Shown one piece after another: positions 16,626 through 35,274 of a stretch of DNA of 35,582 bases. The translations under genes and the position numbers were made by a program. Every line of letters begins with the position of its first letter. Within the stretch, counting starts at the first letter, position 1. The stretch lies in sequence record SRR20825015_384; one strand, written 5' to 3'. Below the pieces are notes generated by a model, which saw only the letters and a program-made list of their open reading frames with translations, ran no database searches and had not been told where the DNA came from.

Positions 16626-16826
16626 AGAAAAGCGTTCATCGCGAGGGCTGAAAAGGGGAGAGGATCAACAACGCCCAAGCGGGATTGTCGCGATGAAGAC
16701 CTTCAACGCTTGTGCGCCGATGTCGCCCCTCCCACCGGCCGTCACCCTCTAGCTTGAGCCGAGGGCCCTGTACTTTGTTTGCCGGGATGGGATGGATTTC
16801 TACAGTCAGCTTTCGATGGCGAGCCA

Positions 16827-17642
16827 TTAAGAAGCGGCCGGGTGGTTTGCCTCGCGCCAGTGATTAACTGCGAAATCAACAAGCTGCGGCATGCCGGTAA
16901 TAATGCCGCGAGCCAGTGCGATGTTTCCCGAAGTGGCGACTCCCGACGCCATGGCAGCATCGCCAACTGGCAGAAATTCATCATCATCCATGATCTGTGG
17001 AACTTTGAATTTCACCCACTGCCGTCCGCCATCGACCATGATGGGAGCCCCTTCCTGCACGATGGGCCGATCAGGCCACCGAATGTCTTCGGCAAGATGC
17101 AGCGCGGTGCAACGATTGAAACCTACTCCAATCAACAAGGTTTTTGCGTTCAAACGATAAAGCGCGCCCGACGGCGATGTTGGCCCCAGTGGATCGCTTA
17201 GTTCGTGACGAGCGATGATCTCGCCTGCGTGTCGACCCCAAGCTGCCATGGAGGTGGCGGGATGGGCGCTACGTCTGGCTCCCGGCCAAGTGCGGAAGAC
17301 TTCGGCTACTGCTCCCATGCCGCCGGTGGGCGTCGTGGCAGGTTCGTAGGCCGGCATGGTCGAACGAATTATCTCAATCCAGGCCATCGGCACTGGCGGC
17401 TGCCGCCAATTTGCAGGGTCAGAAAGCCCGCCAGAATGGGTCGGCATGGCTATGGTGCCCCGGTTCCCCAGCGCATCGAGAAGGGCCTGCACAACCGCAA
17501 CCGGTCCGCCGCTGACCCAACCCAGTGACCGCAGTGAGCAGTGCACGAGCACCACGTCGCCTTGTCGGATGCCTATGCCTTCCAGGTCGCGTTGTAAGCT
17601 TTCCCTTGAGGCAGGGGTCTTTGTGCGATCGATAAGGTCCAT
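16827..17642 (-). CDS. AAC(3) family (aminoglycoside N3-acetyltransferase / YokD-like) protein
   Basis: GDVVLVHCSLRSLGWVSGG, MPTHS, RSAHP and LLIGVGFNRCTALHLAE motifs. Confidence 0.9.
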   Translation of the reverse strand: MDLIDRTKTPASRESLQRDLEGIGIRQGDVVLVHCSLRSLGWVSGGPVAVVQALLDALGNRGTIAMPTHSGGLSDPANWRQPPVPMAWIEIIRSTMPAYEPATTPTGGMGAVAEVFRTWPGARRSAHPATSMAAWGRHAGEIIARHELSDPLGPTSPSGALYRLNAKTLLIGVGFNRCTALHLAEDIRWPDRPIVQEGAPIMVDGGRQWVKFKVPQIMDDDEFLPVGDAAMASGVATSGNIALARGIITGMPQLVDFAVNHWREANHPAAS

Positions 17643-17671
17643 TGAGCCGCATCCATGGTGAACTCGCCCTA

Positions 17672-17765
17672 CAATGTCAGCTCTTAGGTGACGATCGGAT
17701 GAACGGCAATGACCGAAACGGAGCGCGTTTCGGACCGCACGTGCTGACCCCCATTGCGGTCATTG
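17672..17765. repeat. Junction repeat cluster (direct pair plus inverted copy)
   Basis: CAATGTCAGCTCTTAGG (17672), CAATGACCGAAACGGAGCGC (17707) and minus-strand CAATGACCGCAATGGGGGTC (17765-17746). Confidence 0.6.
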
Positions 17766-17882
17766 AGACCCGGCCTATCCCCACAGATTGCCAATATGAC
17801 GGACGTCCTGTCACCAGGATGAACCTGCCCGATAGCACTGGCGCCAGATGTGAAGCAGGTCGAGGTGTAGGCAATGCAATTA

Positions 17883-17914
17883 TTCTTGACTCTGGAGTCC
17901 AGAATGCCTATCTC
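17883..17914 (+). promoter_or_regulatory. tetR promoter with overlapping operator
   Basis: TTCTTGACT-CTGG-AGTCCAGAA palindrome overlaps -35 TTGACT (17886); 17-bp spacer; -10 TATCTC (17909). Confidence 0.75.
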
Positions 17915-17920
17915 GACATC

Positions 17921-18508
17921 ATGGCAAGACCTAAAGAGTTTGATCGCGACGCGGCGCTGGCCGGGGCACTCGAAGTGTTCTGGGCCAAGGGCTATGAGGG
18001 TGCCTCGACCGACGATCTGCTCCGGGCGATGAAAATCGGCCGGCAATCCATGTACGACACGTTCGGGGACAAGCACGCGCTCTTCCTCGAGAGCCTGCGC
18101 CGCTACCATAAGCTCGACAACAAGAATTTCTTCGACCACCTGGGCGACAATCCCTCACCGCTGAAGGTGCTGCACGGCTTCCTCTCCATTTTCGCCCGTC
18201 GTAGCGCGGAGGAAAATGCCAGGGGCTGCATGGGTATCAACGCCACGACCGCCTTTGGCCGTACTGAACCGGAGGTCGCGACACTGGCGCGCAATACCGC
18301 CGACAATGTCGAGGCCATGCTCGCCGAACTCGTTGAGGCCGCTCAAGAGGCGGGCGAACTTGCGGAAACCCTCGACGCAGGGACGGCCGCGGGCTTTCTT
18401 TACGCCGCCCTCCAGGGGCTGACCATCCGCGCCCAGGCGGGGGCCGGTCGGGACGAACTGGCCAATGTCGCCAATTTCACCGTAGAGGCGCTCAAAGCCA
18501 TGCGGTAG
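17921..18508 (+). CDS. TetR/AcrR family regulator (ComR/NemR-like)
   Basis: MARPKEFD...VFWAKGYEGAS...IGRQSMYDTFGDK HTH and C-terminal RGCM motif. Confidence 0.93.
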   Translation: MARPKEFDRDAALAGALEVFWAKGYEGASTDDLLRAMKIGRQSMYDTFGDKHALFLESLRRYHKLDNKNFFDHLGDNPSPLKVLHGFLSIFARRSAEENARGCMGINATTAFGRTEPEVATLARNTADNVEAMLAELVEAAQEAGELAETLDAGTAAGFLYAALQGLTIRAQAGAGRDELANVANFTVEALKAMR

Positions 18509-18544
18509 GCGCCCTCAAACCACCCTAACCACAAGCCTGTTTAA

Positions 18545-18566
18545 TTCTGGACTGCGCAGTCCAGAA
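18545..18566. promoter_or_regulatory. TetR operator upstream of the SDR gene
   Basis: Perfect 22-bp palindrome TTCTGGACTGCGCAGTCCAGAA matching the site at 17883. Confidence 0.85.
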
Positions 18567-18600
18567 AACGACCATCCATGTCTTGCGAAAGGATACTGAC

Positions 18601-19341
18601 ATGTCTGACTATCAACCACTCCACGGCAAGCGCGCCATCGTCTCTGGCGGCTCACGCGGCATAGGCGCTGCCATTGTCCGCAAGCTTGCGGAGCAGGGCG
18701 CCTATGTGGCGTTCACCTATTCGGCAAATGCCGAAGCGGCGCAAAATCTCGTAGCTGATATCAAGGCAAAGGGCGTTACGGCCTTTGGCCTCCGGGCCGA
18801 CAGTGCCGACGTCCAGGGGCTGCAGGACGCGATCCGCGAAGCCGTCGAAACCCTGGGTGGCCTCGATATCCTGGTCAACAATGCCGGCATCCTGGTCCAT
18901 GCCCTGTTAGACGACATGAGCCAGGCCGACTTTGACAAGACCATCGCCATCAATGTGCGGGCGCCGTTCTTTGCCATGCAGGAGGCGGCCAGGCATATGC
19001 AGGCGGGTGGGCGCATCATCAACGTGTCGAGCAATGTCGCGGTCAGCGCGGCGGTGCCCGGGTCCAGCGTCTATGGATTGTCCAAGTCCGCCGTGACGGC
19101 CATGACGCGCTCGCTGGCGCACGAGTTTGCCCCCAAGGGTATCACGGTCAACGCAGTGCAGCCCGGACCGACCACGACCGACATGACATCGGGGATGGAG
19201 GATTTCATCATCGGCCGCGTGCCTGCGGGTCGCCTCGCGGCTGCTTCGGAGCCGGCAGCCCTGGTTGCTTACCTTGCCGGGCCAGATGCAGGCTTCATCA
19301 ATGGCGCGGCGATTACCATCGATGGCGCCATGACCGCCTGA
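18601..19341 (+). CDS. Short-chain dehydrogenase/reductase (FabG/BdcA-like)
   Basis: SGGSRGIG, LVNNAG, YGLSK catalytic motif and NAVQPGPTTTDM; AAGGA RBS. Confidence 0.93.
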   Translation: MSDYQPLHGKRAIVSGGSRGIGAAIVRKLAEQGAYVAFTYSANAEAAQNLVADIKAKGVTAFGLRADSADVQGLQDAIREAVETLGGLDILVNNAGILVHALLDDMSQADFDKTIAINVRAPFFAMQEAARHMQAGGRIINVSSNVAVSAAVPGSSVYGLSKSAVTAMTRSLAHEFAPKGITVNAVQPGPTTTDMTSGMEDFIIGRVPAGRLAAASEPAALVAYLAGPDAGFINGAAITIDGAMTA

Positions 19342-19469
19342 TAGGTGAACCGGGTCCTCGCCAAACCGCTGCGCGGCGGGGGGCCAGACATCCTTAAGAC
19401 GTCAGCGGCATCGCAGGGAGGTCTGCGCCGGTTGCGGTGCTCGTCCTCTAAGGCGTCTCGGGAGAGGCT

Positions 19470-19592
19470 CTAGTGTATGGCGCCGATGTGCCCGGACATA
19501 TGGGCGAGCTTGTCCCGGTTCCGTATCTTGTAGATTGCCCTGATACGACCATCCTCGATCTCGAACGCGGTTGTCTGCAGGGTGCCGTTGTA
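19470..19592 (-). pseudogene. 3' remnant of an ECF41/SigJ-type sigma factor (SnoaL-like C-terminus)
   Basis: GTLQTTAFEIEDGRIRAIYKIRNRDKLAH resembles the ECF41 ...DGRI.AIY..RNPDKL tail; no sigma2/sigma4 region seen upstream. Confidence 0.65.
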
Positions 19593-19824
19593 CAACATCA
19601 AACTGGAATGCTTCTCTAAATGAGCAGAAATGGCCAAGATCACCTGCCGAGTAGCCTGGTGAAGAAACGTATCGGTGCATGTTTTGGAGGCGGACGCCAA
19701 AGACACTTTCAGGCACTTATCCAAGTCGGCGATGCGGTTCGAAAGCAACCGTTCCATCCATGACAGTTTTCACGAAGCGGGGTCACAGCGGGCCCCAACC
19801 GAAAGTTCGCTGAATGATCGTAAT

Positions 19825-19890
19825 AGCCGGCAGCTTGCCGGAAGCCGCACTGGCCATCTCAGGGCCGATTTTGGGCGCAAAGCAGAGATT
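19825..19890 (+). repeat. Junction repeat (direct pair)
   Basis: AGCCGGCAGCTTGCCGG (19825) and TCAGGGCCGATTTTGGGCGC (19859), ending next to the lysR stop. Confidence 0.5.
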
Positions 19891-19891
19891 T

Positions 19892-20797
19892 TCAGTGCAG
19901 CTTGTCGACCAAAAAGTCCACAAAGACGCGAACACGGGCCGGAATGTTGGCTCCGCCGACAAAAACAGCGTGGATATGCTCGACATCGCCCGGATTGTAG
20001 TCCTCAAGGAGTGGGACTAACCGTCCGTTCTCGATCTCGGTGATGACGCTGAAGCGGCCCACGCGAGCGATCCCAACCCCTTGAGCGGCGAGTTCACCCA
20101 GGGTCTCGCCGCTGTTCGCCTCGATCGTGCCCTTCACTGACAGTGCGAAATCCTCTCCGTGGCGGCGAAACGGCCAGATCGGCTCGGCGCGACGGAAATT
20201 GAAATTGAGGCAGTTGTGATGGTGCAGATCCTCCGGCACGCGCGGGGTGCCGGCGTGCGCCAGATAGTCGGGAGAGGCAACGATCATGCGGCCTGTCTCG
20301 CCCAGCTTGCGCGCCATGAGGCCGCTGTCGGGGAGCGGACCGAAGCGAATCGCCACATCCGCTTCGCCACCTGCCACATCGACCAGGGTATCCGACAAGG
20401 CGATGTCGACCAGGATATGAGGATAGAGCCGCACGAATTCACCGAGCAGGGGCACGACGCATAGCCGGCCGTGAGATTGCGCCGCGTTGACCCGAAGCCG
20501 ACCGCGCGGCGCCCCTTGGTCGGAGATTTGCTGCTCGGCGTCATTCAGGTCGGCCAGGATGCGTCGCGCAGCCTGGAGATAGCTGCGACCTTCCGCTGTC
20601 AGGGTGAGTGTGCGGGTCGAGCGCAGCAGCAGCCGCACACCAAGCCGAGCTTCGATCCGGTCGACCGCGCGGCTGACCGCAGAGGGGGTAAGGTCGAATT
20701 GGCGGCCGGCCGCCGAGAAGCTGCCGAGATCGACCACCGCCGTGAATATCTCCAGCGCGCGTGCGCGATCTGCCCCGTCCTTGGCTTTTGCGTCCAT
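19892..20797 (-). CDS. LysR family regulator (CrgA/DmlR-like)
   Basis: HTH GSFSAAGRQFDLTPSAVSR...RLGVRLLLRSTR, plus VASPDYL and HNCL; divergent from the AKR-MFS operon. Confidence 0.93.
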   Translation of the reverse strand: MDAKAKDGADRARALEIFTAVVDLGSFSAAGRQFDLTPSAVSRAVDRIEARLGVRLLLRSTRTLTLTAEGRSYLQAARRILADLNDAEQQISDQGAPRGRLRVNAAQSHGRLCVVPLLGEFVRLYPHILVDIALSDTLVDVAGGEADVAIRFGPLPDSGLMARKLGETGRMIVASPDYLAHAGTPRVPEDLHHHNCLNFNFRRAEPIWPFRRHGEDFALSVKGTIEANSGETLGELAAQGVGIARVGRFSVITEIENGRLVPLLEDYNPGDVEHIHAVFVGGANIPARVRVFVDFLVDKLH

Positions 20798-20804
20798 AGC
20801 AAAA
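20786..20804. promoter_or_regulatory. Putative LysR recognition site (T-N11-A)
   Basis: TTTTGC-GTCCATA-GCAAAA dyad overlapping the lysR start codon. Confidence 0.55.
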
Positions 20805-20885
20805 ATCCTTTGCTCCATTGCCCGCTATTCCAGCGCAGTGCTTACGTTCATCTATGCGTCCATATCGTAACCAAAAGGGTGAACC

Positions 20886-21920
20886 ATGGAATATAGGCAA
20901 TTGGGGGCGTCGGGCCTGCGTGTGCCCGCGCTCAGCTTTGGCACCGGCACCTTCGGCGGCAAGGGTCCGCTGTTCAGCGCCTGGGGTCAGAGCGACGCCG
21001 CCGAGGCGCGGCGGCTGATCGACATTTGCCTGGACGCAGGCGTCAACTTGTTCGACACCGCCGATGTCTATTCGAACGGCGCTTCCGAGGAGGTGCTGGG
21101 CGAGGCCATCAAGGGCCGGCGTGGTGCAGTGCTGATTTCGACCAAGACGGGTCTGCCGATGGGCGACGGCCCCGAGGACTGGGGCGCATCACGCGCACGG
21201 CTGATCCGTGCGGTCGAGGACGCGCTGCGGCGGCTGGGCACCGACTACATCGACCTGCTCCAGCTTCACGCTTTCGATGCTTTCACCCCGGTCGAAGAGT
21301 TGATGGGCACACTCGATATGCTGATCGCGGCAGGCAAGCTGCGATATGCCGGCGTTTCCAACTATCCCGGCTGGCAGCTCATGAAAGCTCAAGCGGTCGC
21401 AGATCGGCAGGGCTTGCCGCGACTTGTCGCGCACCAGGTTTATTACTCGCTGATCGGACGCGGCTATGAGGCGGACCTGATGCCGCTCGCCGCCGATCAG
21501 GGCGTCGGTGCGCTGGTCTGGAGCCCCCTCGGATGGGGTCGGTTGACGGGCCGGATCGGGCGCGGCCGCCCAGTCCCCGAAGGCAGCCGCCTTCAGGAGA
21601 CCGAACAGTTTGCCCCACCTGTTGCGGAAGAACATCTCTACCAGGTGATCGACGCGCTGGAGGATATCGCGCGTGAGACGGGCAAGACGGTCCCGCAGAT
21701 CGCGATCAACTGGCTGCTTCAACGCCCAACCGTCTCGTCAGTCATTGTCGGCGCGCGCAACGAGGAGCAGCTGCGCCAGAATCTCGGTGCCGTGGGCTGG
21801 AAGCTCACCCCCGAACAGATGAAAGCGCTCGATCAGGCCAGTGATCTGCTGCCGCCCTATCCCCACACCCCGTATCGGCAGCAGGAGGGCTTTGCCCGCC
21901 TCAACCCGCCGATGGTCTGA
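20886..21920 (+). CDS. Aldo/keto reductase
   Basis: FDTADVYSNG.SE, LGTDYIDLLQLH, GVSN and WSPLGWGRLTG. Confidence 0.93.
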   Translation: MEYRQLGASGLRVPALSFGTGTFGGKGPLFSAWGQSDAAEARRLIDICLDAGVNLFDTADVYSNGASEEVLGEAIKGRRGAVLISTKTGLPMGDGPEDWGASRARLIRAVEDALRRLGTDYIDLLQLHAFDAFTPVEELMGTLDMLIAAGKLRYAGVSNYPGWQLMKAQAVADRQGLPRLVAHQVYYSLIGRGYEADLMPLAADQGVGALVWSPLGWGRLTGRIGRGRPVPEGSRLQETEQFAPPVAEEHLYQVIDALEDIARETGKTVPQIAINWLLQRPTVSSVIVGARNEEQLRQNLGAVGWKLTPEQMKALDQASDLLPPYPHTPYRQQEGFARLNPPMV

Positions 21921-21935
21921 TAAGGAATTCCCGCA

Positions 21936-23111
21936 ATGAAACTCAACCACGGGCTGATTGCCCTATCGGTCGGCGCCTTCGGCATCGGCGTGACGGAATT
22001 CGCCCCTATGGGTCTGCTGCCGGTCATCGCAACTGATCTTGGCGTTTCCATCCCTGTCGCGGGGCTGCTGATCAGTGCCTATGCACTGGGGGTGATGATC
22101 GGTGCCCCGCTGATGACGCTCACGACCGGCCGTGTGCCACGCCGCACGCTGTTGATCCTTCTGGCTGGCATCTTCACCCTTGGAAATCTGCTGGCGGCAG
22201 TCTCAACCGGCTACGGCATGTTTATGGTCGCGCGGATCGTCACCTCCCTCAACCACGGCGCATTCTTTGGCGTCGGATCGATCGTCGCGGCCAGCCTGGT
22301 GCCGCCAGAACGCAGGGCCGGCGCGGTCGCAGCGATGTTCATGGGGCTGACCATCGCCAATGTCGTCGGCGTGCCGCTCGCTGCCTGGGGAGGCGAACAT
22401 CTCGGCTGGCGAATGGCTTTCTGGGGCATTGCCGGGCTCGGCATTGCTACCATGGTCGCGCTTCGGCTGACACTGCCGGCGCTGCCCGCACCGAAGAGCG
22501 GCAACGCGCTTGCCGAGTTACGTGCGCTGAGCAGCAGACAGGTGCTTGGAGCACTTGCGCTCACCGTCGTCGGTTCGAGCGCGATGTTCACCGTCTTCAC
22601 CTATATTGCGCCGATACTGCGCGAAGCGACGCACGCTTCGCTCGGCTTCGTGACATTGATGCTCGTAACTTATGGCGTGGGGATGACGGTGGGCAACTGG
22701 CTGGGCGGCCGCTTTGCCGACCGGTCGGTCGACCGTACGCTGATCGTCGCGCTGGTCGGGCTGACCGCAGTCCTCATCGCCTTTGCACTGTTGATGCCCT
22801 TTATCGCGCCAATGCCGATCATCATCTTCCTGTGGGGTGTGGCAAGTTTTGCGCTGGTGCCGCCGCTTCAGGTCCGGGTCATGTCGGCTGCGGTGGACGC
22901 GCCCAATCTGGCTTCGTCGGTCAATATCGGCGCGTTCAACCTGGGCAATGCCGTCGGCGCGGCTCTGGGTGGCGCTGTTATCGCGTCCGGGCTTGGCTAT
23001 CCCGCGGTGGCACTGGCAGGCGCGGCGACCTCGGCCATCGGGCTAAGCGCTGTGTTGTTCGCAGTTAGCAGAGCACCCGTGTCGGACGATCGGCAGTTTT
23101 GCAGGACGTGA
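21936..23111 (+). CDS. MFS transporter (DHA1, AraJ/YdhP-like)
   Basis: AFGIGVTEFAPMGLL, HGAFFGVG, GLTIANVVGVP and AFNLGNAVGA; about 12 TMs. Confidence 0.93.
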   Translation: MKLNHGLIALSVGAFGIGVTEFAPMGLLPVIATDLGVSIPVAGLLISAYALGVMIGAPLMTLTTGRVPRRTLLILLAGIFTLGNLLAAVSTGYGMFMVARIVTSLNHGAFFGVGSIVAASLVPPERRAGAVAAMFMGLTIANVVGVPLAAWGGEHLGWRMAFWGIAGLGIATMVALRLTLPALPAPKSGNALAELRALSSRQVLGALALTVVGSSAMFTVFTYIAPILREATHASLGFVTLMLVTYGVGMTVGNWLGGRFADRSVDRTLIVALVGLTAVLIAFALLMPFIAPMPIIIFLWGVASFALVPPLQVRVMSAAVDAPNLASSVNIGAFNLGNAVGAALGGAVIASGLGYPAVALAGAATSAIGLSAVLFAVSRAPVSDDRQFCRT

Positions 23112-23142
23112 GACTTGGCGCCGAACGACTGGAGAGAAGCGG
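23088..23142 (+). repeat. Junction repeat (direct pair) overlapping the MFS 3' end
   Basis: GATCGGCAGTTTTGCAG (23088) and GAACGACTGGAGAGAAGCGG (23123), 35 bp apart. Confidence 0.5.
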
Positions 23143-24347: not shown

Positions 24348-24374
24348 CGGACTTGAAAAGCCACTGGAGCGCAG

Positions 24375-24819: not shown

Positions 24820-24947
24820 GCCGCTCCCCTCCCTTCACCCGCCAGTCTGGCGGTAACTGAGGGCATTCGACCCTGAAGCGAGGTTCGCAGTGGTGAGCCG
24901 GAATTAGACGACGCCTGCACGGTAGTATGTGGTTCGGGCCGAAGTGT

Positions 24948-25814: not shown

Positions 25815-25955
25815 AAGGCGGACGTCCTTTGCTGCGAGCGGTCAATTGGCTTGTCACCACAACACCACCCAATGTGGGCAGGCGCTATGCATATCCTATC
25901 AAGGGCGCGCTGTTTTCTCTCAGATTGTGTGCGCCAAGCGGCAGCTCCGTCTGGT

Positions 25956-26020
25956 TGAGAGCCTCAGGCAAATCCCTGATAGGATCTGCGTAGGGTGTGC
26001 GGATGCCCCTTCGCTATGAT
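25956..26020 (+). promoter_or_regulatory. AraC-activated promoter of the AKR gene
   Basis: Direct repeats TGAGAGCCTCAGGCAA (25956) and TGATAGGATCTGCGTA (25977), 21 bp apart, abutting the -35 position; -10 TATGAT at 26015. Confidence 0.6.
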
Positions 26021-26081
26021 GCTTGCAACGGCGCTGTTCGGTGCCTGATCATGCTTTTCACTGCATCTCAAGGATCAAGCC

Positions 26082-27080
26082 ATGCGCATGCGCAAGTTCG
26101 GGAATAGTGGCCTTTTTGTATCAGAACTGTCTTTCGGGGCAATGACCTTCGGCGGTACGGGGGGCATATGGGGACAGGTCGGTAAGCTCGGTCAGGAAGA
26201 GGCCGATGTTCTGGTCAAGGCTGCCCTCGATGCGGGCATCAACCTGTTCGACACGGCCAATATCTACGCCAATGGTCGCAGCGAGGAAATCCTGGGTCAG
26301 TCGCTCAGGAATCTGGGTGTAGCGAGGGAAGACGTGGTCATTGCGACGAAGGTGCATGGCGCGATGGGCGAGGGTCCGAACCGGCGCGGTGCGTCGCGCG
26401 GCCATATCATGAGTGAGGTGCATGCCAGCTTGCGGCGACTCCAACTCGACCACATCGACCTCTACCAACTGCACGGTTTTGATCGGGATACCCCGATGGA
26501 AGAAACACTGGAGGCGCTCGATACACTCGTTCGGGCCGGTGATGTCCGCTATATCGGCCTCTCGAACTGGGCGGCGTGGCAGATCATGAAAGCGGTCGGC
26601 ATCACCGCACAAAGGCAACTGGCGCCGATCACCTCCCTGCAGGCCTACTACACTTTGGTCGGGCGGGACCTCGAGCGCGAGATCGTCCCCATGCTGACCT
26701 CGGAGAAGGTCGGGCTCATGGTCTGGAGCCCGCTCGCTGGGGGTTACCTCAGCGGCAAGTATTCTGCGGGTGGCGACAGCACGGGCGGCCGTCAGACGGA
26801 ACTGGATTTTCCGCCCATCAATCGGGAGCGCGGTGAACCGCTGATCGACGTGATGAAGGCCGTTGCTGCAAAACATGATTGCAAGCCCGCTCAGATCGCC
26901 ATCGCCTGGCTATTGATGCAGCCAGTCGTCTCCACCGTTCTGATCGGGGCCAAACGGGTAGACCAGCTCCATGAAAACGTCCGGGCAACCGAGATCGCGC
27001 TGGACGAAGAAGACTTGGCGCAACTCGACACAGTCAGCCGGCTACCGATCGAGTATCCTGGATGGTCCCTTGGCAATTGA
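26082..27080 (+). CDS. Aldo/keto reductase
   Basis: FDTANIYANGRSE, LQLDHIDLYQLH, IGLSN and WSPLAGGYLSGKY; AAGGA RBS. Confidence 0.93.
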   Translation: MRMRKFGNSGLFVSELSFGAMTFGGTGGIWGQVGKLGQEEADVLVKAALDAGINLFDTANIYANGRSEEILGQSLRNLGVAREDVVIATKVHGAMGEGPNRRGASRGHIMSEVHASLRRLQLDHIDLYQLHGFDRDTPMEETLEALDTLVRAGDVRYIGLSNWAAWQIMKAVGITAQRQLAPITSLQAYYTLVGRDLEREIVPMLTSEKVGLMVWSPLAGGYLSGKYSAGGDSTGGRQTELDFPPINRERGEPLIDVMKAVAAKHDCKPAQIAIAWLLMQPVVSTVLIGAKRVDQLHENVRATEIALDEEDLAQLDTVSRLPIEYPGWSLGN

Positions 27081-27098
27081 GTTACTCCCCGCCAAAGG

Positions 27099-27153
27099 AA
27101 GTGGCAGCTTTCGGGATCCCGGCGAGACTGTCTGAACGGCAGGCATGGGGCGG
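27099..27153 (+). repeat. Junction repeat (direct pair)
   Basis: AAGTGGCAGCTTTCGGG (27099) and GAACGGCAGGCATGGGGCGG (27134), 35 bp apart. Confidence 0.6.
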
Positions 27154-27177
27154 TGGGTTCAACCGATCGTCGCAACA
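27152..27177. mobile_element. Solo IS terminal inverted repeat (IS30-like)
   Basis: GGTGGGTTCAACCGATCGTCGCAACA resembles recalled IS30-family ends (GGCGGxTTCAACxGxTCGxCGCAACA). No transposase or partner end seen. Confidence 0.5.
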
Positions 27178-27454: not shown

Positions 27455-27934
27455 CTATGACGGTCCTCGGTCGATGTTCTTGGACATATTCACGCCAGTG
27501 ACGCGAAATCCCGCCCCTTCGTAAACACGCAACGCACGTACATTGTCGGCAGCAACTCGCAGCTTGATTTGGTCGAACCCGCATTCTTTCAAAGTTTGCT
27601 CCAACGCCTGAAGCGCCGCCTTACCGTAAGCCTGGCCCCGGTGGTCCGGAAAAACATAGAAGTCTTTGATAAAGACCGAGCGAGCCTCGGCGTTGGGTCT
27701 GTACCACAGATAGCCTACGACCTTGCCGACCGTGTCCTCAAGACAAAGCAGCACTTCGCCCTTGGTGTCCACGCCTTGGGGAAGGTCGGCCGCGACTTCG
27801 CTTTTCGCCTGGTCTAGGGCATCCTCGTGGGCAAGGCCGTAGTTGGACTGTATTTCGGCAGCGTAGTCAGGCAAAAAATATTCAAGGTAGTGGGAATACT
27901 CGCTGGCGAGCATTGGCCGTGATCTGATCGACAT
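27455..27934 (-). CDS. GNAT family N-acetyltransferase
   Basis: VGYLWY, FYVFPDHRGQAYGK (acetyl-CoA motif A) and LRVAADNVRALRVYEGAGF. Confidence 0.92.
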   Translation of the reverse strand: MSIRSRPMLASEYSHYLEYFLPDYAAEIQSNYGLAHEDALDQAKSEVAADLPQGVDTKGEVLLCLEDTVGKVVGYLWYRPNAEARSVFIKDFYVFPDHRGQAYGKAALQALEQTLKECGFDQIKLRVAADNVRALRVYEGAGFRVTGVNMSKNIDRGPS

Positions 27935-28269
27935 GAAGTTCCGCCCGGTTACGCGTTATCGCAAGGCCCATTGGCTGACAATCGCTCGCGCCAAGTCAAA
28001 TAAATTCGGGTGCAGCGTAAGGTGATCGGTTGGCGCCAACGTCCGAATTGGGATCGGCTGCGGGTGACTGATTTAGATCTCCAATTGGGCAGTCCTGGAA
28101 CACAATATCTGGGTTGGAACCTACTGATCAGCGATGCGCCCCATGTTGATCTTCTGTCGCGGCTGAATTCACGCCGCTCGCGTGCCACACCAATGTGCAG
28201 CGCCTACACATGCTCCTTCGGCTTTACCGTTACCTCTACCCACACTGTACGACCATTGACCGCTCATTT

Positions 28270-28314: not shown

Positions 28315-28504
28315 TTTTACGCAGCTCCGCGCGTTTTTGCCGACGGGGAACCCTTGGTGAAAGGAGAATTTTTGAACCCCGGCCTTCGAAGCAATCTGCA
28401 TTTCGGCCGAACCTTCTCGGAGGTCGTTGCGTCTGTATTTCGGCCTGTACTTGGTGGGTGAATATCTTACCTTGAATTTCCAATCGTGGTCAGGATCGCG
28501 CGGT

Positions 28505-29638
28505 ATGCATGATGACATTCTGGACACCATTGAGAGTTTCTATGCCTGCGTCGGAGAGACTTTCGATTTTGATACTGCTCTGTCGCGGTTCAGTCGCGCT
28601 ACGGACGAAACTTCTTATTGTCTGCTCGATTTCAAACTGAGTGGCCCGCACACGTTATTCAGCTTCGTCGGTTTTCCTGACGAGGCGATGCTAACCATGC
28701 TCAAACGGCAGTGGACTAGCGAAAATCATGGCATTTACGGCAATTTCTCCAAGATCCCGAACGGTATTCCCTTACTGCATCGCGCGGTCGAATCCGATGA
28801 CTCCTATTACCGCTCGGAGCTCTACAAGCTTGCGATGGCGCCCTGGGGGTTGCATTCCATTGGTGTCTGCTTCCTGAAAAAGAACGCCCAGGGCGGCTTG
28901 ATAAACGGCTTCGGGCGCAAGCCTGATCAGGCCGAAATTGGTCCCGAGCTGCTGGCGCTCATGTCGGTGCTGAACAACCACCTTTTGAGGGCGATCAACC
29001 TCAATTGGCGAATGGACCGGATCGAGACAGCGCTGGTTCGAGCGAATAGTGTGCTTGACCTGATCGACTTTGGGCTGGTGCTTTACGGCACGTCGCAATC
29101 TGCAATCTTCGTCAATGCTGCCGCGCGACGGATATTCGAGCAGAAAGACGGCCTGGTACTTGAGAAAACCGGGCTCGTGCCAACAGATCGTGAAGCACAA
29201 CGCGTCTTCACGGCATTGCTTGAAGAGGTACAGCGCGAAGACCAGCCCATGTCTGCACGGGTTGGCGGTGTGGTCAGCGTGCCTCGTCCCTCCAAGAAAA
29301 AGCCCTATGGGCTCATGACGGTCCCGATGAATGGTGCCGGACGGCGGGGCCCCGACGCTGCCGGCACCGCAGTCATGATATTTGATCCGGAGGCCAAGCG
29401 CACCAGTGTGCCGGACCTGTTTGCAAACGCTTATGGATTTACGGGGGCCGAGTCTCGCTTGGCAACAGCCTTAGCGGAAGGAAGCAGCCTTGAGGACTAT
29501 GCCAATGCGAATGGAATATCTCGCAACACCGCCAAGTCGCATCTTCATGCTGTTTTCGCGAAGACAGAGACCTCGCGACAGCATGAGTTGGTAAGCCTGT
29601 TGTTGCGCTCGATGGCTGGTATCAACTTCGACTTCTGA
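28505..29638 (+). CDS. LuxR-type HTH regulator with N-terminal GAF/PAS-like region (copy 1)
   Basis: PAS-like IFVNAAARRIF and C-terminal GFTGAESRLA..LAEG...ISRNTAKSHLHAVFAKT..SRQ.ELV. Confidence 0.88.
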   Translation: MHDDILDTIESFYACVGETFDFDTALSRFSRATDETSYCLLDFKLSGPHTLFSFVGFPDEAMLTMLKRQWTSENHGIYGNFSKIPNGIPLLHRAVESDDSYYRSELYKLAMAPWGLHSIGVCFLKKNAQGGLINGFGRKPDQAEIGPELLALMSVLNNHLLRAINLNWRMDRIETALVRANSVLDLIDFGLVLYGTSQSAIFVNAAARRIFEQKDGLVLEKTGLVPTDREAQRVFTALLEEVQREDQPMSARVGGVVSVPRPSKKKPYGLMTVPMNGAGRRGPDAAGTAVMIFDPEAKRTSVPDLFANAYGFTGAESRLATALAEGSSLEDYANANGISRNTAKSHLHAVFAKTETSRQHELVSLLLRSMAGINFDF

Positions 29639-29752
29639 TTGACAATGAGGGTTTGCTGCCCCGCAACGGCAAAACGCGCTACTATGTCCAGCGTCGGCAG
29701 TTCATGGTCTTACGCGTCGTCGGGCGCGTTCTTTTGGGTGGGAGAACTCGAC

Positions 29753-30901
29753 TTGCAGGACCTCTTGTCTGCAATAGACATCATGTACGATTGCGTTGGT
29801 GATCGATTTGACTACCAAAGAGCTATTGCGGCGCTCGGCCACGGAGCCGACGACACTGCGGTATGCCTGATGGAACTGGACAGGAGTCGATCAAGCTCTG
29901 TGGCGCTGGCATCCTACAATGTGCCAGAGGAATCCGTCAGGGCGCAGGTCCGCTGTACCAAAAGAGCGGATGCCAACACCCTTGTCAGGAACCTGTCCGC
30001 GATCGATGTCCGCGTGCCCGTCCTGCGGCGCAGCTTCGTCTCTGACGAGGAACATTTTGCCAGCGCTCTTTATCGCGAGAGCGGCGCACCCTGGGGCTTT
30101 CATAGCGAGGGCACGTGTATCCTTGAGAAGCAATCTACGGGTGGCGTCATGCTTTACGGCTTTGCCCGGGAGCGCGGGCAGCGGGAAGTCGATCACTTGA
30201 TCCTGTCGCGCATGGCCATCCTTGCGAGCCACATGTGGCGCGCAATGACACTGCAGCGCAGATTGAACAAGCTGGAAGAGGCCGTCGTTCAGGCCAACAA
30301 TGTGCTCGACCTGATTGAATTCGGTCTCGTGCTCTATCAGCCGGACGGCAGCGTGGGGTTTGTCAACCGGGCGGCGCGGCGCATGCTAGGTGACGGAGAC
30401 GGACTTGAATTGCGGACACAGGGGCTCGCGGCCGCAGACCGCAATGCACAGCGTCAGTTGCGTGACATCCTTGATTTCGACAACAAATCATCGCTGCCTC
30501 TGTCGCAGAGAACGGGTAAGATGCTGCGCGTTTCGCGCCCGTCGGGCAGGAAGCCGTACAGCATTCTGGTCACGCCGACCCGTGGTCACTCGGTCTCCGG
30601 TCTCGACGGGGTCAACCTCGCGGTATTTATCTTCGATCCGGATTCTCGAATCGTCAGCACGGTCAATTTGTTCGTGTCATCCTACGATCTTACCCCGGTC
30701 GAGGCGGAACTGGCCCACGCGCTCGCCCAAGGATCCACCCTCGATGAGTTCTCTGCGCGGCGCGGCATAACCCGCAACACCGCGAAATGGCATTTGCGGT
30801 CGATCTTCGAAAAAACGGAGACGTCGCGCCAGCCCGAGTTGGTCAGCCTTTTGCTGCGTTCGGTCGCCGGAGTTAACCTCAACAGCCCTCGATCGGGCTA
30901 G
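29753..30901 (+). CDS. LuxR-type HTH regulator with N-terminal GAF/PAS-like region (copy 2)
   Basis: Paralogue of copy 1 (ANNVLDLIEFGLVLY; ITRNTAKWHLRSIFEKT..SRQ.ELV). The TTG start at 29753 has a GGAG RBS and aligns with the copy 1 N-terminus; the ORF is open from 29639. Confidence 0.86.
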   Translation: MQDLLSAIDIMYDCVGDRFDYQRAIAALGHGADDTAVCLMELDRSRSSSVALASYNVPEESVRAQVRCTKRADANTLVRNLSAIDVRVPVLRRSFVSDEEHFASALYRESGAPWGFHSEGTCILEKQSTGGVMLYGFARERGQREVDHLILSRMAILASHMWRAMTLQRRLNKLEEAVVQANNVLDLIEFGLVLYQPDGSVGFVNRAARRMLGDGDGLELRTQGLAAADRNAQRQLRDILDFDNKSSLPLSQRTGKMLRVSRPSGRKPYSILVTPTRGHSVSGLDGVNLAVFIFDPDSRIVSTVNLFVSSYDLTPVEAELAHALAQGSTLDEFSARRGITRNTAKWHLRSIFEKTETSRQPELVSLLLRSVAGVNLNSPRSG

Positions 30902-30902
30902 G

Positions 30903-30961
30903 CAGTGACGGATCTGGAGCGCGTCTTGCTGAGGCGGAAACGCCCCAAACGACGGTCAATT
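30903..30961. repeat. Junction repeat (inverted pair)
   Basis: CAGTGACGGATCTGGAGCGC (30903; 15/20 identical to the 17707 copy) and minus-strand AATTGACCGTCGTTTGGGGCG (30961-30941). Confidence 0.55.
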
Positions 30962-33822: not shown

Positions 33823-33882
33823 TTTTTCAGGAGCTGTCGTATCGAAGGGGCCGCGTCACGGAGCGGACGAGTGCCCATCCCG

Positions 33883-33926
33883 CCTTTAAGTTGTTTCAGC
33901 CAGCCGCGCCTCGTACGTTTGGATGG
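33883..33926 (-). promoter_or_regulatory. Operator plus -10-like element for the autotransporter
   Basis: Minus strand CCATCC-AAAC-GTACGA-GGCGCG-N16-TAAAGG. Confidence 0.6.
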
Positions 33927-34070
33927 GGTCGGGTCAAAAAACCTCGGTCGTGTCATCACTTGTGACCGTAAGGCATCAGTGTTGATGCGTGCTTCAGTCG
34001 CCGGACTTTGCCGCCAAAACGACCATTCTGGACGGTGGCAATGACGCAGCCGGTGCTGCACGCGATGGTC

Positions 34071-34105
34071 AAAAAAGATGGGCTGGCGAATTGCCAGCCC
34101 ATCTT
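34071..34105 (-). terminator. Rho-independent terminator after the porin gene
   Basis: Minus strand AAGATGGGCTGGC-AATTC-GCCAGCCCATCTT ending in a 6-T run. Confidence 0.9.
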
Positions 34106-34137
34106 GTTCTCACCAAACCGCGCTGGCCCAGACGGGC

Positions 34138-34926
34138 CTAGAAATGAAAGTTCAGACCGACCTTCACGACGTGGTTCGCGTTGAAATCGAAGTTGGCTGT
34201 ATTCACACCACCGATGCCTCCGATGCCGTCTATCGTCAGGTTGCCCATAAGATCGGTGTAGAGGTATTCAGCCTTGATCGTGATGTCCTCATCAACCGCC
34301 ATTTCGAGTCCGGCACCAAGGGTGTACCCGAGCAGCCAGCCTTCCGTGCGCAGGACAGGCAGAACATCGGAGGCCTGCAGCTCTGCATGGGCGTGTCCCG
34401 CTGCTATGCCCGCGGTCACATAGGCGAGGATATTGCGCTCATCTCCGGTTAGGATGCCGGCGCGTCCGCGCAAGGTGCCCAAGGCATCAATCCCGGCCGC
34501 AACGTATTGTGGCCCAAAGTTGCCGCGGATGCCGGGGGTCGTAGCGCTCGCCCCCATGCCTGCCCAGGCCAGGTCGCCTTCAATGCCGACCAGAATATTG
34601 CGATCATCCTCCGGCGTATCATAGTCGTCTTCGCCAAGCAGGAAGTTGCGTCCGATTGTAATGCCAGCGAGTGGGCCTGAAATATCGAGCGTGCGGTCAA
34701 AAAAACTGACCGGAGCGTCAGTCGTGACATCCACACTTCCCAAGCCGTATCCCACGAAAATGCCGGCATAGAAGCGCTCCCAATCGAACGCCTCCTCTTC
34801 CTCAACCATCAGAACCGGCGGGACATAGACGGCGACAGGCAGGTCTGCCGCTGCTGCGTGTCCCGTGATCCAGAGCGCCAGAACTCCCGATGTCAAAGCC
34901 GCATAGCCAGTTATCCTCAATACCAT
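34138..34926 (-). CDS. Omp25/RopB-family outer membrane beta-barrel protein
   Basis: Signal peptide ending AAA-ADL, FDWERFYAGIFVGY, GIEGD, GTLRGRAG, KAEYLYTD and C-terminal VKVGLNFHF. Confidence 0.9.
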   Translation of the reverse strand: MVLRITGYAALTSGVLALWITGHAAAADLPVAVYVPPVLMVEEEEAFDWERFYAGIFVGYGLGSVDVTTDAPVSFFDRTLDISGPLAGITIGRNFLLGEDDYDTPEDDRNILVGIEGDLAWAGMGASATTPGIRGNFGPQYVAAGIDALGTLRGRAGILTGDERNILAYVTAGIAAGHAHAELQASDVLPVLRTEGWLLGYTLGAGLEMAVDEDITIKAEYLYTDLMGNLTIDGIGGIGGVNTANFDFNANHVVKVGLNFHF

Positions 34927-34990
34927 GTGTTTCCCGTTTCGTTTTCTGCGGAACTCGCGCGCGAATTCAGCCTCTCCAAGAAGTCGGGAA

Positions 34991-35034
34991 AACGTAGGCA
35001 GATCGACTTTTGCGCGCCTCATCCAGACGGATGG
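34991..35034 (-). promoter_or_regulatory. Operator plus -10 element for the porin gene
   Basis: Minus strand CCATCC-GTCT-GGATGA-GGCGCG-N16-TACGTT. Confidence 0.65.
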
Positions 35035-35216
35035 TAAAATGGTGCTGGTGCGCCAGGTGTGATCTAGATGCAACGCATGCGGCAGGGTCTGGAATGGAAT
35101 GCGGAGGCCGTCGTTGGTGGAGCCGCTCTCTGCCAAAGTCACCGGAGCATGTGTGAAGGCGGGCATCGCCTTATGGGAAGGTACAGCCTCGCTTGATCGG
35201 GCTCATACGTGACAGC

Positions 35217-35274
35217 TAACGTCGATTTTTGGCGAGAACCGGTCAGACCACTCACGGCCCCAAATGCGACATGG
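35217..35274. repeat. Junction repeat (inverted pair) at the TetR truncation point
   Basis: TAACGTCGATTTTTGGCGAG (35217) and minus-strand CCATGTCGCATTTGGGGCCG (35274-35255). Confidence 0.5.

Follow-up and report, generated by a model that had tools for sequence, protein, structure and literature searches.

The right-hand part of the DNA analysed here (hereafter the window, a stretch of 35,582 nucleotides from the genus Devosia) forms a single array from 16.8 to 35.6 kb, in which self-contained accessory modules (aac, tetR-SDR, lysR-AKR-MFS, SDR-merR, araC-AKR and GNAT) are separated by four supported and two weak copies of a dispersed repeat, with a related repeat of 120 nt at the left edge. 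On balance, these repeats are probably the attachment or end repeats of a family of tyrosine-recombinase elements, the window containing an array of recombinase-less copies lying between accessory modules. Across a comparison set of 109 Devosia genomes (relatives labelled G001, G002 and so on), the repeat family is linked to a recombinase gene, forms arrays and ends where homology between loci breaks. The window was scanned with nhmmer profiles built solely from the copies of other Devosia genomes, the window contributing no sequence; the best match in the reversed window had an E value of 0.8-1.2, and the arm matrix gave no reversed-control match of at least 6 bits. The features are as follows.

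16679 to 16796, plus strand: copy of a second dispersed repeat, ~120 nt, between the TM2 gene and aac (BLAST matches)
16827 to 17642, minus strand: module 1, aminoglycoside 3-N-acetyltransferase family gene, aac (Pfam PF02522, E 1.4e-81)
17673 to 17767, plus strand: full hairpin-type copy, gene-less (nhmmer E 1.2e-7, model positions 10-104; arm matrix 10.8 and 13.0 bits)
17879 to 19341, plus strand: module 2, tetR and a short-chain dehydrogenase gene (Pfam)
19826 to 19879, plus strand: weak, decayed left unit (E 0.13, score 6.7 against 4.1 for the best reversed control; unit-only model E 2.8; arm matrix 2.5 bits)
19891 to 23134, mixed strands: module 3, lysR (minus), aldo-keto reductase (plus) and MFS transporter (plus) (Pfam)
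23085 to 23141, plus strand: decayed unit at the right end of the lysR-AKR-MFS module, overlapping the MFS stop codon (assigned by orthology; window-only score E 1.5, the noise level)
24943 to 27080, mixed strands: module 5, araC (minus) and aldo-keto reductase (plus) (Pfam)
27097 to 27152, plus strand: well-preserved solo unit, half-site and arm (E 1.2e-10 and 1.5e-8; arm matrix 22.6 bits, half-site matrix 17.4 bits)
27455 to 27934, minus strand: module 6, GNAT acetyltransferase gene (Pfam PF00583, E 1.4e-17)
28034 to 28175, minus strand: probable hairpin-type copy between the GNAT gene and the next gene, with unit end, spacer and right arm (nhmmer E 1.1e-3 at 28144-28103 and 0.035 at 28062-28034)
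35525 to 35553, plus strand: possible, weak arm copy, missing from the initial annotation, inside the last ORF, which is cut by the window end (E 0.57; arm matrix 12.5 bits)

The repeat unit is bipartite, ~66 nt long and terminates in ...AATGGGGCG|C. Its two subrepeats, a half-site resembling GGCAGCTTTCGGGAA followed by an arm resembling TGAAYGGCNGGAATGGGGCGC, are ~35 bp apart, and some copies carry an inverted arm ~21 nt beyond the unit. Both geometries proposed in the initial annotation, direct pairs and inverted pairs, are features of this family, the former reflecting the subrepeats within a unit and the latter the inverted arm, which gives a span of ~60 bp. When up to 3 mismatches are allowed, an arm 20-mer has 41 matches in five relatives versus 2 for the reversed pattern; an arm 21-mer with up to 2 mismatches has ~341 matches in 88 of the 109 genomes versus 2 control matches, and an iterated profile run over 1.75 Mb of loci recovers 50-51 matches (37-38 distinct), with 0 in the reversed loci. 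Because models derived from other Devosia genomes, without window sequence, recover copies with near-zero control matches, the family is real. Conservation of the unit stops sharply at GGGGCG|C: among 66 copies, mean pairwise identity falls from 74% (columns 43-63) to 39% (columns 64-73) and to 26-30% further on. In eight copy pairs the units are at least 85% (up to 100%) identical and the right flanks are unrelated (22-38% identity). A second inverted arm is scarce in solo units, the best inverted match reaching at least 13 of 20 positions in 6 of 66 copies versus 2 of 66 controls.

Several window copies can be described closely. The unit at 27097-27152 lies 19 nt past the AKR stop codon and shares 80% identity over 50 nt with copies in G002. 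Together with the minus-strand copy at 28034-28175 it brackets the GNAT module, and an inverted repeat (27148-27168 / 28024-28044) lies on both sides of the GNAT gene. Between the divergent aac and tetR genes, the copy at 17673-17767 consists of a left unit (17673-17727), a spacer and an inverted right arm (17746-17767); it contains an inverted repeat (17707-17721 / 17751-17765) that is 87% complementary, and it looks MITE-like. The counterparts of 23085-23141 in G064 and G085 are better-preserved units, and homology stops at their GGGGCG end.

The modules themselves recur separately in relatives. The aac gene is found alone at 71-80% DNA identity in four genomes (G014, G035, G031 and G007), and tetR-SDR, which contains an operator-like palindrome at 17882-17904 with a second occurrence at 18544-18566, has counterparts at 74-77% identity in six (G045, G090, G091, G037, G053 and G065). 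Module 3 (19891-23134) is present as one block at 90% identity in G064:C13 and at 89-91% in G085, and module 5 as a block at 79% in G046 and 75-81% in G086; in G046, related repeat pieces lie 3' of the reductase gene. At the left edge, the ~120-nt repeat contains an internal hairpin and has BLAST matches at 15 places in G001 and at 1-3 places in each of G002-G005. In G001 it lies immediately 5' of multi-copy small GIY-YIG genes (in locus L117, a by-eye reading places a GIY-YIG ORF after the repeat), and synteny between the window and locus L001 stops at window position 16791.

The consensus written in the initial annotation is, as a motif on its own, not above shuffle level. Requiring at least 10 matches at its 13 informative positions yields 38 sites (18 left of 16.7 kb and 20 right) versus 36.8 +/- 6.0 in 30 dinucleotide shuffles, and requiring at least 11 yields 5 versus 3.6 +/- 1.7. 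The 13 listed plus-strand copies agree with it at only 7-13 of 13 positions, and at these match levels there are 7-114 consensus matches per kb, with equal density in coding and intergenic DNA. Nor does the proposed 34-35 bp direct spacing form a peak as a window-wide signal of this consensus, since pairs (threshold 8) number 14 at 34 bp and 19 at 35 bp versus a mean of 20.9 +/- 4.4 across spacings of 20-60. All-against-all local alignment of 25 intergenic regions was shuffle-like (top score 21.5; the best scores of the shuffles averaged 17.05 and reached 21), and a general repeat search of the window reported no such motif family. About half of the listed sites are true family copies; those at 24867-24886, ~27405, 30903-30961, 35217-35274 and 16801 are unsupported, with arm scores from 1.8 down to -21 bits. 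The claim that the motif marks almost every junction was too strong. Roughly half of the sites it rests on do no better than chance, and a supported repeat is present at 5 of 9 junctions (one of them belonging to the related 120-nt family) and a weak one at 1 further junction. Profile and arm-matrix searches found no supported copy at three window junctions (between merR and araC, after 30901, and between the porin and the last ORF), an observation that speaks against the attachment-site reading. As for the stated absence of the motif from 1-16.6 kb, no copy with E<1 occurs there, and one arm-matrix match of 8.3 bits lies at 3367.

The search for a co-occurring recombinase family was successful. 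The linked enzyme is a tyrosine recombinase of ~210 aa (Pfam PF00589, E 1e-19) in which the R, H-x-x-R, H and Y residues are invariant in the alignment; of the solved proteins, XerH and XerD come closest, the similarity to Xer being distant (E ~1e-4). Among the 27 full-length recombinase genes with more than 250 nt of downstream sequence, 25 are followed by a convergent unit no more than 300 nt past the stop codon, at a distance that is fixed per type (~141 nt in one and ~44-50 nt in the other). An inverted unit upstream of the gene was called at 5 loci and is visible by eye at 8 of 8 aligned loci, with a spacer of 10 to 60 nt between unit and gene and the GGGGCG tip pointing towards the gene. 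The gene is multi-copy and mobile, being present in 53 of 109 genomes and 80-100% identical between species, and a copy on an Aminobacter plasmid shows the same unit arrangement. It also occurs inside arrays, at G013:C3 306072-306722 next to a unit at 306770 and at G049:C1 1052607-1053257 next to a unit at 1052541. In the window, tblastn found no recombinase gene (best E value 0.069), which counts against the attachment-site reading; the recombinase would have to act in trans on the window sites. The initial annotation had offered a recombinase or an HUH nuclease; the linked enzyme belongs to the former class, and no Y1 transposase was found in five relatives. Its suggestion of a decayed MITE family is partly true, given that 17673-17767 has both arms and no gene and that relatives carry the recombinase gene between two inverted units. 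Gene-less copies in relatives comprise MITE-like, hairpin-type pairs and solo units.

Homology breaks precisely at GGGGCG|C in three comparisons between genomes or contigs: the window versus G064 (at 23141), G001 L182 position 4499 versus G002 L235 position 128, and contigs C65 versus C22 of G002. With this sharp end and the breakpoints located there, the motif noticed initially belongs to a genuine repeat family that behaves like a recombination site. For lysR-AKR-MFS, the best-documented module, the only boundary that falls at a unit in G064 is the right one. No recognisable unit was found left of the module in G064, and in the window the weak unit at 19826-19879 stops 12-14 nt short of the left homology breakpoint (19891), which weighs against the attachment-site reading. 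Co-oriented arrays of arm matches are found in G013 (six minus-strand matches in 87 kb), G039 (seven minus in 43 kb), G034 (six minus in 134 kb) and G042 (four plus in 8 kb), and G001 has five plus-strand copies in 9.4 kb and three minus-strand copies in 2.5 kb. The genes between copies in these arrays are accessory, and the cargo between sites, 0.2-15 kb in size, comprises modules of several genes that include their own regulators and lie in both orientations.

In the model that we favour, a recombinase presumably encoded elsewhere in the genome would bind the arm repeats and exchange strands at or adjoining GGGGCG|C. In this way, the DNA to one side of a unit, for example a module with its own unit, would be joined to a new neighbour, and repeated joining events would build co-oriented arrays. 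We infer from the linkage and the breakpoints that the recombinase acts on these sites and that the modules move as units. The arm spacing fits this model less well: classical tyrosine-recombinase core sites have an overlap of 6-8 bp, much narrower than the ~21 nt between arms here, and most solo units have no second arm.

A serious, though rather unlikely, alternative is that the repeats are passive, REP/BIME-like mosaic intergenic elements with a host role (e.g., in mRNA 3' ends or DNA structure), at which the recombinase cassette, IS110 and others prefer to insert, and that shuffling is ordinary homologous recombination between copies without a dedicated enzyme. The placement of copies agrees with it, 31 of 48 lying downstream of a co-oriented gene and 23 of 48 between convergent genes; the latter count tells against the attachment-site reading, as passive REP-like repeats or tolerated insertions would also show it. 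The repeats are indeed mosaic, with several alternative right-hand modules, and the recombinase cassette, whose conserved boundaries are its own, adjoins differing unit copies. Genes of the IS110, IS3 and IS66 families also adjoin copies, so the repeats may simply be insertion hot spots. In addition, units of 55-66 nt at 74% identity or above could support RecA-mediated exchange. However, the strict count is low, at 0-12 copies per genome, and these are concentrated in few arrays with no genome-wide spread, a search of the unit for a consensus RNA structure found none, and 25 of 27 recombinase genes have a unit at a set distance; moreover, the breakpoints fall at one nucleotide position, whereas homologous exchange predicts a spread through the unit.

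It is improbable that a transposon-like element has these repeats as its terminal inverted repeats, with solo and paired copies as one-ended and MITE-like relics and modules lying between old insertions rather than being mobilised as cassettes. The recombinase gene between inverted units, the gene-less two-armed copy at 17673-17767 and the two subrepeats of each unit, a feature shared with the ends of several transposons, would suit such an origin, but the GGGGCG tip faces the recombinase gene instead of outward, the upstream spacer varies from 10 to 60 nt, and arrays are dominated by co-oriented solo units. Very improbable is a chance pattern picked from GC-rich intergenic DNA: although neither the consensus as written nor its spacings rise above shuffled sequence and five listed sites fail every independent model, other genomes yield the family with near-zero control matches, and family models then locate the best of the sites originally listed. 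Chance is refuted for the family as a whole and stands only for the unsupported sites. Finally, two further identities, attC sites belonging to a classical integron and REPINs moved by a RAYT (HUH Y1) transposase, can both be practically dismissed, for despite the co-oriented arrays and the imperfect inverted repeats of some copies, five of five relatives have neither an integron integrase above the curated cut-off nor a detectable Y1 transposase, the recombinase scores 23.6 bits against an IntI cut-off of 265, the sites are sequence-conserved, and the modules include regulators of their own and occur in both orientations.

Compared with known systems, the attachment-site reading shares with integrons a tyrosine recombinase, arrays of co-oriented repeated sites after cargo genes, imperfect inverted repeats in some sites and a junction between neighbouring cargoes at a fixed point in the site. 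It differs in its short, non-IntI enzyme, whose gene is multi-copy and mobile, in its multi-gene cargo, and in sites that are conserved in sequence, with no consensus fold found, whereas integron sites are conserved only in structure. The core boxes of integrons are RYYYAAC/GTTRRRY, and such boxes are not evident in the repeat unit. REP/BIME, REPINs with RAYT and the RIME and Bru-RS repeats of rhizobia and Brucella are all short intergenic mosaics, partly palindromic, lying preferentially between convergent genes and targeted by IS. Compared by description only, the present family shares the partly palindromic mosaic structure, the convergent-gene bias and the IS beside copies, and differs from REP/BIME/REPIN in having no Y1/RAYT gene in five relatives, a low, array-like copy number and a link to a tyrosine recombinase. 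As with MITEs and their parent IS, the gene-less copy at 17673-17767 exists alongside copies in relatives that combine the same arms with a gene, but here the parent encodes a tyrosine recombinase in place of a DDE transposase, and the conserved tips face inward. The attachment repeats of tycheposons derive from tRNA genes, whereas no tRNA gene was found in the window and the unit matches no Rfam family. In Prochlorococcus, these tyrosine-recombinase elements reportedly accumulate, together with cargo relics that lack the recombinase, in genomic islands that have a repeated attachment sequence at their flanks (10.1101/2020.12.28.424599). On the attachment-site reading, the window array shares with them recombinase-less relics accumulating beside repeated attachment-like sequence. 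The pdif modules rely on dif-like sites of 28 bp and on XerC/XerD of the host, whereas here a 66-nt bipartite unit is paired with a dedicated short recombinase that is only distantly Xer-like. On Acinetobacter plasmids, such pdif/Xer-site modules are reported to consist of genes, often including regulators of their own, between short sites for a tyrosine recombinase, and to occur in differing contexts (PMC12907356, PMC9947245). On the attachment-site reading, the window has in common with them modules that are bounded by short sites, carry their own regulators and recur in different contexts.

The hydrolase encoded at 15087-15971 is 94-97% identical to its relatives in Devosia indica, D. subaequoris, D. 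marina and Devosia sp., which places the window in a Devosia genome. Its first 16.6 kb hold housekeeping-type genes (serB-like, miaA, MatE, csp, PHO4, ilvB/N, pdxJ, kup, OYE, the hydrolase and TM2). Between 16.8 and 35.6 kb, Pfam recognizes aac, tetR, SDR, lysR, AKR, MFS, SDR-like, merR, araC, AKR, GNAT, autotransporter and beta-barrel protein genes, largely in agreement with the gene list of the initial annotation. It also supports the description of the modules as carrying their own regulators (tetR, lysR, merR, araC) and genes in both orientations. At E<=1e-3 no Pfam match was obtained for the ORFs 28427-29638 and 29639-30901, previously called luxR, or for the pieces called 'sigJ' and, at the end, 'tetR'.

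Several features of this gene content deserve mention in their own right. The ORFs 28427-29638 and 29639-30901 (plus strand) are tandem paralogs of 403 and 420 aa, with 3' ends 72% identical over 120 nt. In the Devosia genome G001, a 281-aa GerE-domain gene adjoins an autotransporter gene beside repeat units (locus L183). Positions 19464-19594, within the Pfam-less 'sigJ' fragment region, are 86% identical to a place in contig C1 of genome G055. The aac gene (16827-17642, minus strand) is a full-length member of the aminoglycoside 3-N-acetyltransferase family (PF02522, E 1e-81) from an environmental Devosia, with a 120-nt repeat on one side and a hairpin-type repeat copy on the other. A 23-nt palindrome of the ATTCTGGACT..AGTCCAGAAT type occurs at 17882-17904 upstream of tetR and at 18544-18566 upstream of the SDR gene, and looks like the operator of the TetR regulator of this module. 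Positions 6923-7042 (plus strand) match the Rfam family Atu_C8, a Rhizobiales sRNA (62 bits, gathering score 50, E 9e-11). The acetolactate synthase large-subunit gene (7124-8893) follows shortly downstream, and the matching stretch may represent the leader of that operon.

The initial annotation had proposed that a degenerate motif of about 20 bp marks almost every module junction, in direct pairs 34-35 bp apart and in inverted pairs. The proposed consensus has 13 informative positions, of which the listed copies match only 7-13, and it was compared with 30 dinucleotide shuffles. At least 10 matches are reached at 38 sites (18 in the left half, 20 in the right) versus 36.8 +/- 6.0 in the shuffles, and at least 11 at 5 sites versus 3.6 +/- 1.7, so that enrichment is absent. 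Sites at the 7-13-match levels occur at 7-114 per kb, equally in coding and intergenic DNA and in both halves, and the 34-35 bp spacing shows no peak. All-against-all local alignment of 25 intergenic regions remained at shuffle level, and an unbiased repeat finder returned no such motif family in the window. Judged on the window alone, the motif would have been rejected.

Comparison with other genomes leads to a different outcome. When the right half of the window was searched against the genomes behind its five closest loci, two multi-copy pieces emerged: a ~120-nt repeat (16679-16796), and the motif pair at 27099/27134, which matches copies in genome G002 with 80% identity along 50 nt and on whose second half further partial matches stack. 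Alignment of the matching places defines a conserved unit consisting of a half-site like GGCAGCTTTCGGGAA, about 17 variable bases and an arm like TGAAYGGCNGGAATGGGGCGC. Column identity averages 70%, pairwise identity within the arm is 74%, and in eight pairs of copies the units are 85-100% identical while the right flanks are unrelated. Conservation drops beyond the arm, as follows.

Mean pairwise identity along the unit among 66 distinct copies from relatives (model columns)
Columns 11-28: 61%
Columns 43-63: 74%
Columns 64-73: 39%
Beyond column 73: 26-30%

An inverted right arm (at least 13 of 20 matches) follows 6 of the 66 copies versus 2 of 66 controls, and several more when gaps are allowed. 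Both geometries of the initial annotation are genuine features of this family: the direct pair corresponds to half-site and arm inside a single unit, and the inverted pair spanning about 59 bp to the arm together with a right arm that is inverted and follows after about 21 nt, a form seen in the minority of copies. RNAalifold finds no consensus pairs in the 66-nt unit, and single-sequence folds are inconsistent. With rough gene calls, 23 of 48 intergenic copies lie between convergent genes and 31 of 48 after a co-oriented gene. The idea that the unit starts at the upstream stop codon was discarded, as the distance is 30 nt or less in just 1 of 31 cases (median 150 nt, again with rough gene calls).

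The arm is abundant in the genus. In the five relatives, the arm 20-mer (up to 3 mismatches) has 41 matches versus 2 for the reversed pattern, and the 21-mer (up to 2 mismatches) has about 341 matches in 88 of 109 Devosia genomes versus 2 control matches. Among 251 genomes sampled evenly across the order, only the three from Devosia have the 21-mer in multiple copies (8, 8 and 4 matches), and no multi-copy arm family is evident outside Devosia; 27 other genomes have 1-2 matches each (29 in total versus 8 control matches). One identical string is common to seven of these 27 and may belong to a conserved gene. The half-site pattern is uninformative across the same 251 genomes (19 matches versus 22 in the control), and its matrix does not separate the window from the control.

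A long form, with about 85 conserved bases after the unit, occurs at seven places in four genomes (L131, L156, L158, L162, L164, L168 and L183 6600-6662), of which only L168 has a recombinase nearby, a 302-aa integron-like protein. In three genomes (L220 ~12700, L212 ~4960 and L235 90-127), the CG(A/C)CCC arm end directly adjoins another conserved piece, GAGGCTGTGTGAAA..CCTCC, possibly the terminus of a different element with the same insertion point.

To place copies in the window, an nhmmer profile was iterated on loci from relatives only. Its first seed excluded L169, L179 and L161 as probable coding or chance matches, L161 re-entering during iteration; it converged on 38 distinct copies and has zero matches on reversed loci. 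A second model was built from 11 hairpin-type copies of relatives.

Matches of the two models in the window
27097-27152, plus strand: unit copy, E 1e-10 and 1.5e-8
17673-17767, plus strand: hairpin-type copy, E 0.014 (unit alone) and 1.2e-7 (full hairpin model)
28144-28103 and 28062-28034, minus strand: copy, E 1e-3 and 0.035
19826-19879, plus strand: weak copy, E 0.13
35525-35553, plus strand: possible copy, E 0.57
23085-23133, plus strand: decayed copy, E 1.5
Best reversed-window control: E 0.8-1.2

Four of five window copies are on the plus strand, and the one at 17673-17767 aligns over positions 10-104 of the hairpin model. A matrix of the arm columns gives five window matches of at least 6 bits versus none in the control, at 27132, 17745 (minus strand), 35530, 17705 and 3367, the last being the only one in the housekeeping part, from which the motif family is otherwise absent, in line with the initial annotation. 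Arm scores do not exceed 1.8 bits at 30903/30942, 35217/35256, 28037 (scored as an arm on the plus strand), 16801, 24867 and 27405. Models derived from other Devosia genomes bear out a motif family at module junctions, and the phrase 'almost every junction' goes too far, about half of the listed sites being without support.

Module junctions of the window
Supported: TM2/aac (120-nt family), aac/tetR, MFS/SDR, AKR/GNAT, GNAT/next gene
Weak: before lysR
Unsupported: merR/araC, after 30901, porin/last ORF

A composite element formed by GNAT between facing copies was considered and set aside as ambiguous, the right-hand copy being itself hairpin-type. Separately, a 12.9-kb contig of the public sequencing run X4 matches 27146-27177 (32 bases) with one difference; because X4 also contains the whole window, the organism probably has at least one further copy that shares sequence just right of the unit end.

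The ~120-nt repeat (16679-16796; also L117 1-360 and L096 1360-1597) carries a CCCTCGGG..CCCGAGGG hairpin, and a half-site motif is common to its flank and the 66-nt unit. Synteny with locus L001 stops at its right edge, window position 16791. In G001 it has 15 matches, many at contig ends, where it breaks the assembly; there it immediately precedes a small gene, present in multiple copies, whose product, read by eye, would be a GIY-YIG-like nuclease.

Across Devosia genomes the arm matches are strongly clustered and co-oriented, with whole-genome strand counts that include 0/6, 0/7, 8/0 and 9/2. Arrays are listed below, and another co-oriented one is present in G001.

Arrays of arm matches in Devosia genomes (number, strand, span)
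G013: 6, all minus, 87 kb
G039: 7, all minus, 43 kb
G034: 6, all minus, 134 kb (genome size 3.5 Mb)
G042: 4, all plus, 8 kb
G016: 3 plus followed by 4 minus, 92 kb

In profile scans of such arrays, the units occupy the gaps between operons of 0.2-15 kb. Accessory genes fill the intervals, among them genes for oxidoreductases, ABC and other transporters and regulators, as well as defence-like genes, plasmid KfrA, IS110 and IS3. Read from the positions of its copies, the repeat accumulates in co-oriented arrays among accessory genes.

Several modules of the window recur as blocks in other species, as a genus-wide DNA search revealed.

Module matches in other Devosia genomes (DNA identity)
19891-23134, lysR-AKR-MFS block: 90% in G064, 89-91% in G085
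24943-27074, araC-AKR block: 79% in G046, 75-81% in G086
17879-19339, tetR-SDR block: 74-77% in six genomes
aac alone: 71-80% in four genomes

In addition, positions 1501-1758 of L081 (contig C68 of G002) hold a 258-nt 3' AKR fragment, 86% identical to window 26816-27073, directly after the end of a thiolase-like gene and followed by a truncated unit end; it looks like a relic of an araC-AKR type module.

The initial annotation had raised the question of whether module breakpoints between genomes fall at the motif. At the right end of lysR-AKR-MFS they do: G064 and G085 have better-preserved units there than the window itself, and window homology to both stops exactly at the GGGGCG end of the unit (23141), beyond which the two agree for seven more bases and then part. 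Similarly, G001 and G002 share 3.9 kb at 91% identity whose first base directly follows GGG(G)CG, with unrelated DNA on the left side, and two G002 contigs have 235 bases in common up to GGGGCG and then diverge. By these alignments, the repeat ends at the precise nucleotide where unrelated DNA is joined. At the left end the breakpoints do not coincide: the module boundary in the window (19891) is 12-14 bases past the preceding weak unit, and nothing unit-like precedes the module in G064. The missing unit and the offset boundary argue against a simple cassette picture. The main rival explanation is that the units are passive, mosaic REP-like repeats, targeted by several mobile elements, with homologous recombination between copies. 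None of the copies has an empty orthologous site among the genomes compared; for the G064 module none was seen in 20 relatives, the upstream gene being conserved in G071 and G091 and followed by different DNA. Among the public runs, X4 and X5 contain the whole window in one contig with one differing letter, and X7 and X1 contain low-depth fragments. The only two joints listed in this comparison lie inside genes and come from other contigs, and neither module-level variants nor circle junctions were seen in the contigs, which are silent on rare forms.

The suggested search for a co-occurring recombinase family led to a short tyrosine recombinase next to units in relatives: a scan of the genes next to 51 additional copies yielded one and the same short Phage_integrase protein four times, and a 302-aa integron-like protein once. 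Across four species, identity among the short proteins is 85-97%. By its catalytic domain, the ~210-aa protein is a tyrosine recombinase, with PF00589 at E 1.1e-19 and residues R71, H168, R171, H194 and Y203 (R, H-x-x-R, H, Y) invariant in the protein alignment A2. Its best solved-structure matches, XerH and XerD, are distant only, and it stays below every NCBIfam cut-off.

The gene is present in 53 of 109 Devosia genomes, in up to six places per genome, and many of its copies lie inside the co-oriented arrays. In 27 full-length genes with more than 250 nt of downstream DNA, drawn from 30 loci, a unit is convergent with the gene in 25, about 141 nt from the stop codon in one type (95-100% identical) and about 44-50 nt in the other (82-88% identical). 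Eight aligned loci share one layout: a unit ending GGGGTCG, a spacer whose length varies between 10 and 60 nt, a leader that is conserved, the gene, a short hairpin and, directly after it, an inverted unit starting CCCCATT. The repeat is tied to a mobile tyrosine recombinase, and it is this linkage that suggests recombination of the unit by the enzyme. The window itself has no recombinase or integrase gene, and the proposal of a recombinase acting in trans is upheld as likely; the HUH nuclease offered as its alternative is the wrong class, no RAYT Y1 transposase (PF01797) being found in the five relatives searched versus 6 of 14 control genomes.

This recombinase belongs to a very large family with strong conservation among plasmids and genera of rhizobia, which bears generic names only in the sources consulted. 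It has at least 8000 matches, all at E<=0.001; the best 120 are 81-98% identical and, where named, come from Devosia, Paradevosia, Brucella intermedia, Shinella, Mesorhizobium, Rhizobium or Agrobacterium; 355 plasmid records contain a match. An Aminobacter plasmid copy has a convergent unit (E 1e-6), and a Sinorhizobium copy only a half-site-like piece, upstream. A full-text literature search returned no description of the repeat or of the elements of the short recombinase, and the family is not mentioned in the portions available of a GIY-YIG survey (PMC1564403) and a tyrosine-recombinase survey (10.1101/542381).

The simplest mechanism would be site-specific recombination at or next to the boundary between GGGGCG and the following C. 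The recombinase cassette would be the smallest thing inserting at a unit, a module with its own unit would be a larger cassette, and hairpin-type copies such as 17673-17767 would represent a bare site or a gene-less derivative. We tentatively propose, with rather limited confidence, an undescribed gene-capture system in Devosia, and possibly in many Rhizobiales, with integron-like function and a different build: a minimal ~210-aa tyrosine recombinase, itself a mobile cassette, and a 66-bp bipartite site, through which whole regulated modules would be joined at the GGGGCG end into co-oriented arrays of accessory operons on chromosomes and plasmids. If the recombinase acts on the units, Devosia would have a concrete route to assemble islands of detoxification-type modules (reductases, transporters and acetyltransferases, including the aminoglycoside acetyltransferase homologue) together with their own regulators. 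Even on a conservative reading, the repeat is a practical marker of accessory-module boundaries and assembly breaks in Devosia genomes.

As in an integron, co-oriented arrays of sites following cargo are found in G001, G013, G034, G039 and G042. A classical integron is nevertheless very unlikely. It would have an integrase with the IntI-specific insertion encoded beside the array; no IntI exceeds the TIGR02249 cut-off in the five relatives, and the short recombinase reaches 23.6 bits against a cut-off of 265. Integron attC sites are conserved in structure and variable in sequence, with R''/R' core boxes, whereas the units are conserved in sequence and have no consensus fold, and core boxes are not evident in them by eye. 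A typical integron cassette is one ORF that lacks a promoter and shares the orientation of its neighbours, whereas the modules here have tetR, lysR, merR and araC regulators aboard and genes on both strands. A REPIN system is likewise made unlikely by the lack of a Y1 transposase in the five relatives, the sequence-conserved sites and the regulators carried by the modules. The 28-bp XerC-spacer-XerD layout of Xer/dif (pdif) sites is not seen by eye in the unit. Tycheposon attachment repeats derive from a tRNA gene, whereas ARAGORN finds no tRNA gene in the window and no Rfam family matches any copy at E<=1. A likeness to MITEs does hold: the gene-less copy at 17673-17767 has the same inverted arms as the gene-bearing element of relatives, in which, as in a parent type, the recombinase gene lies between inverted units.
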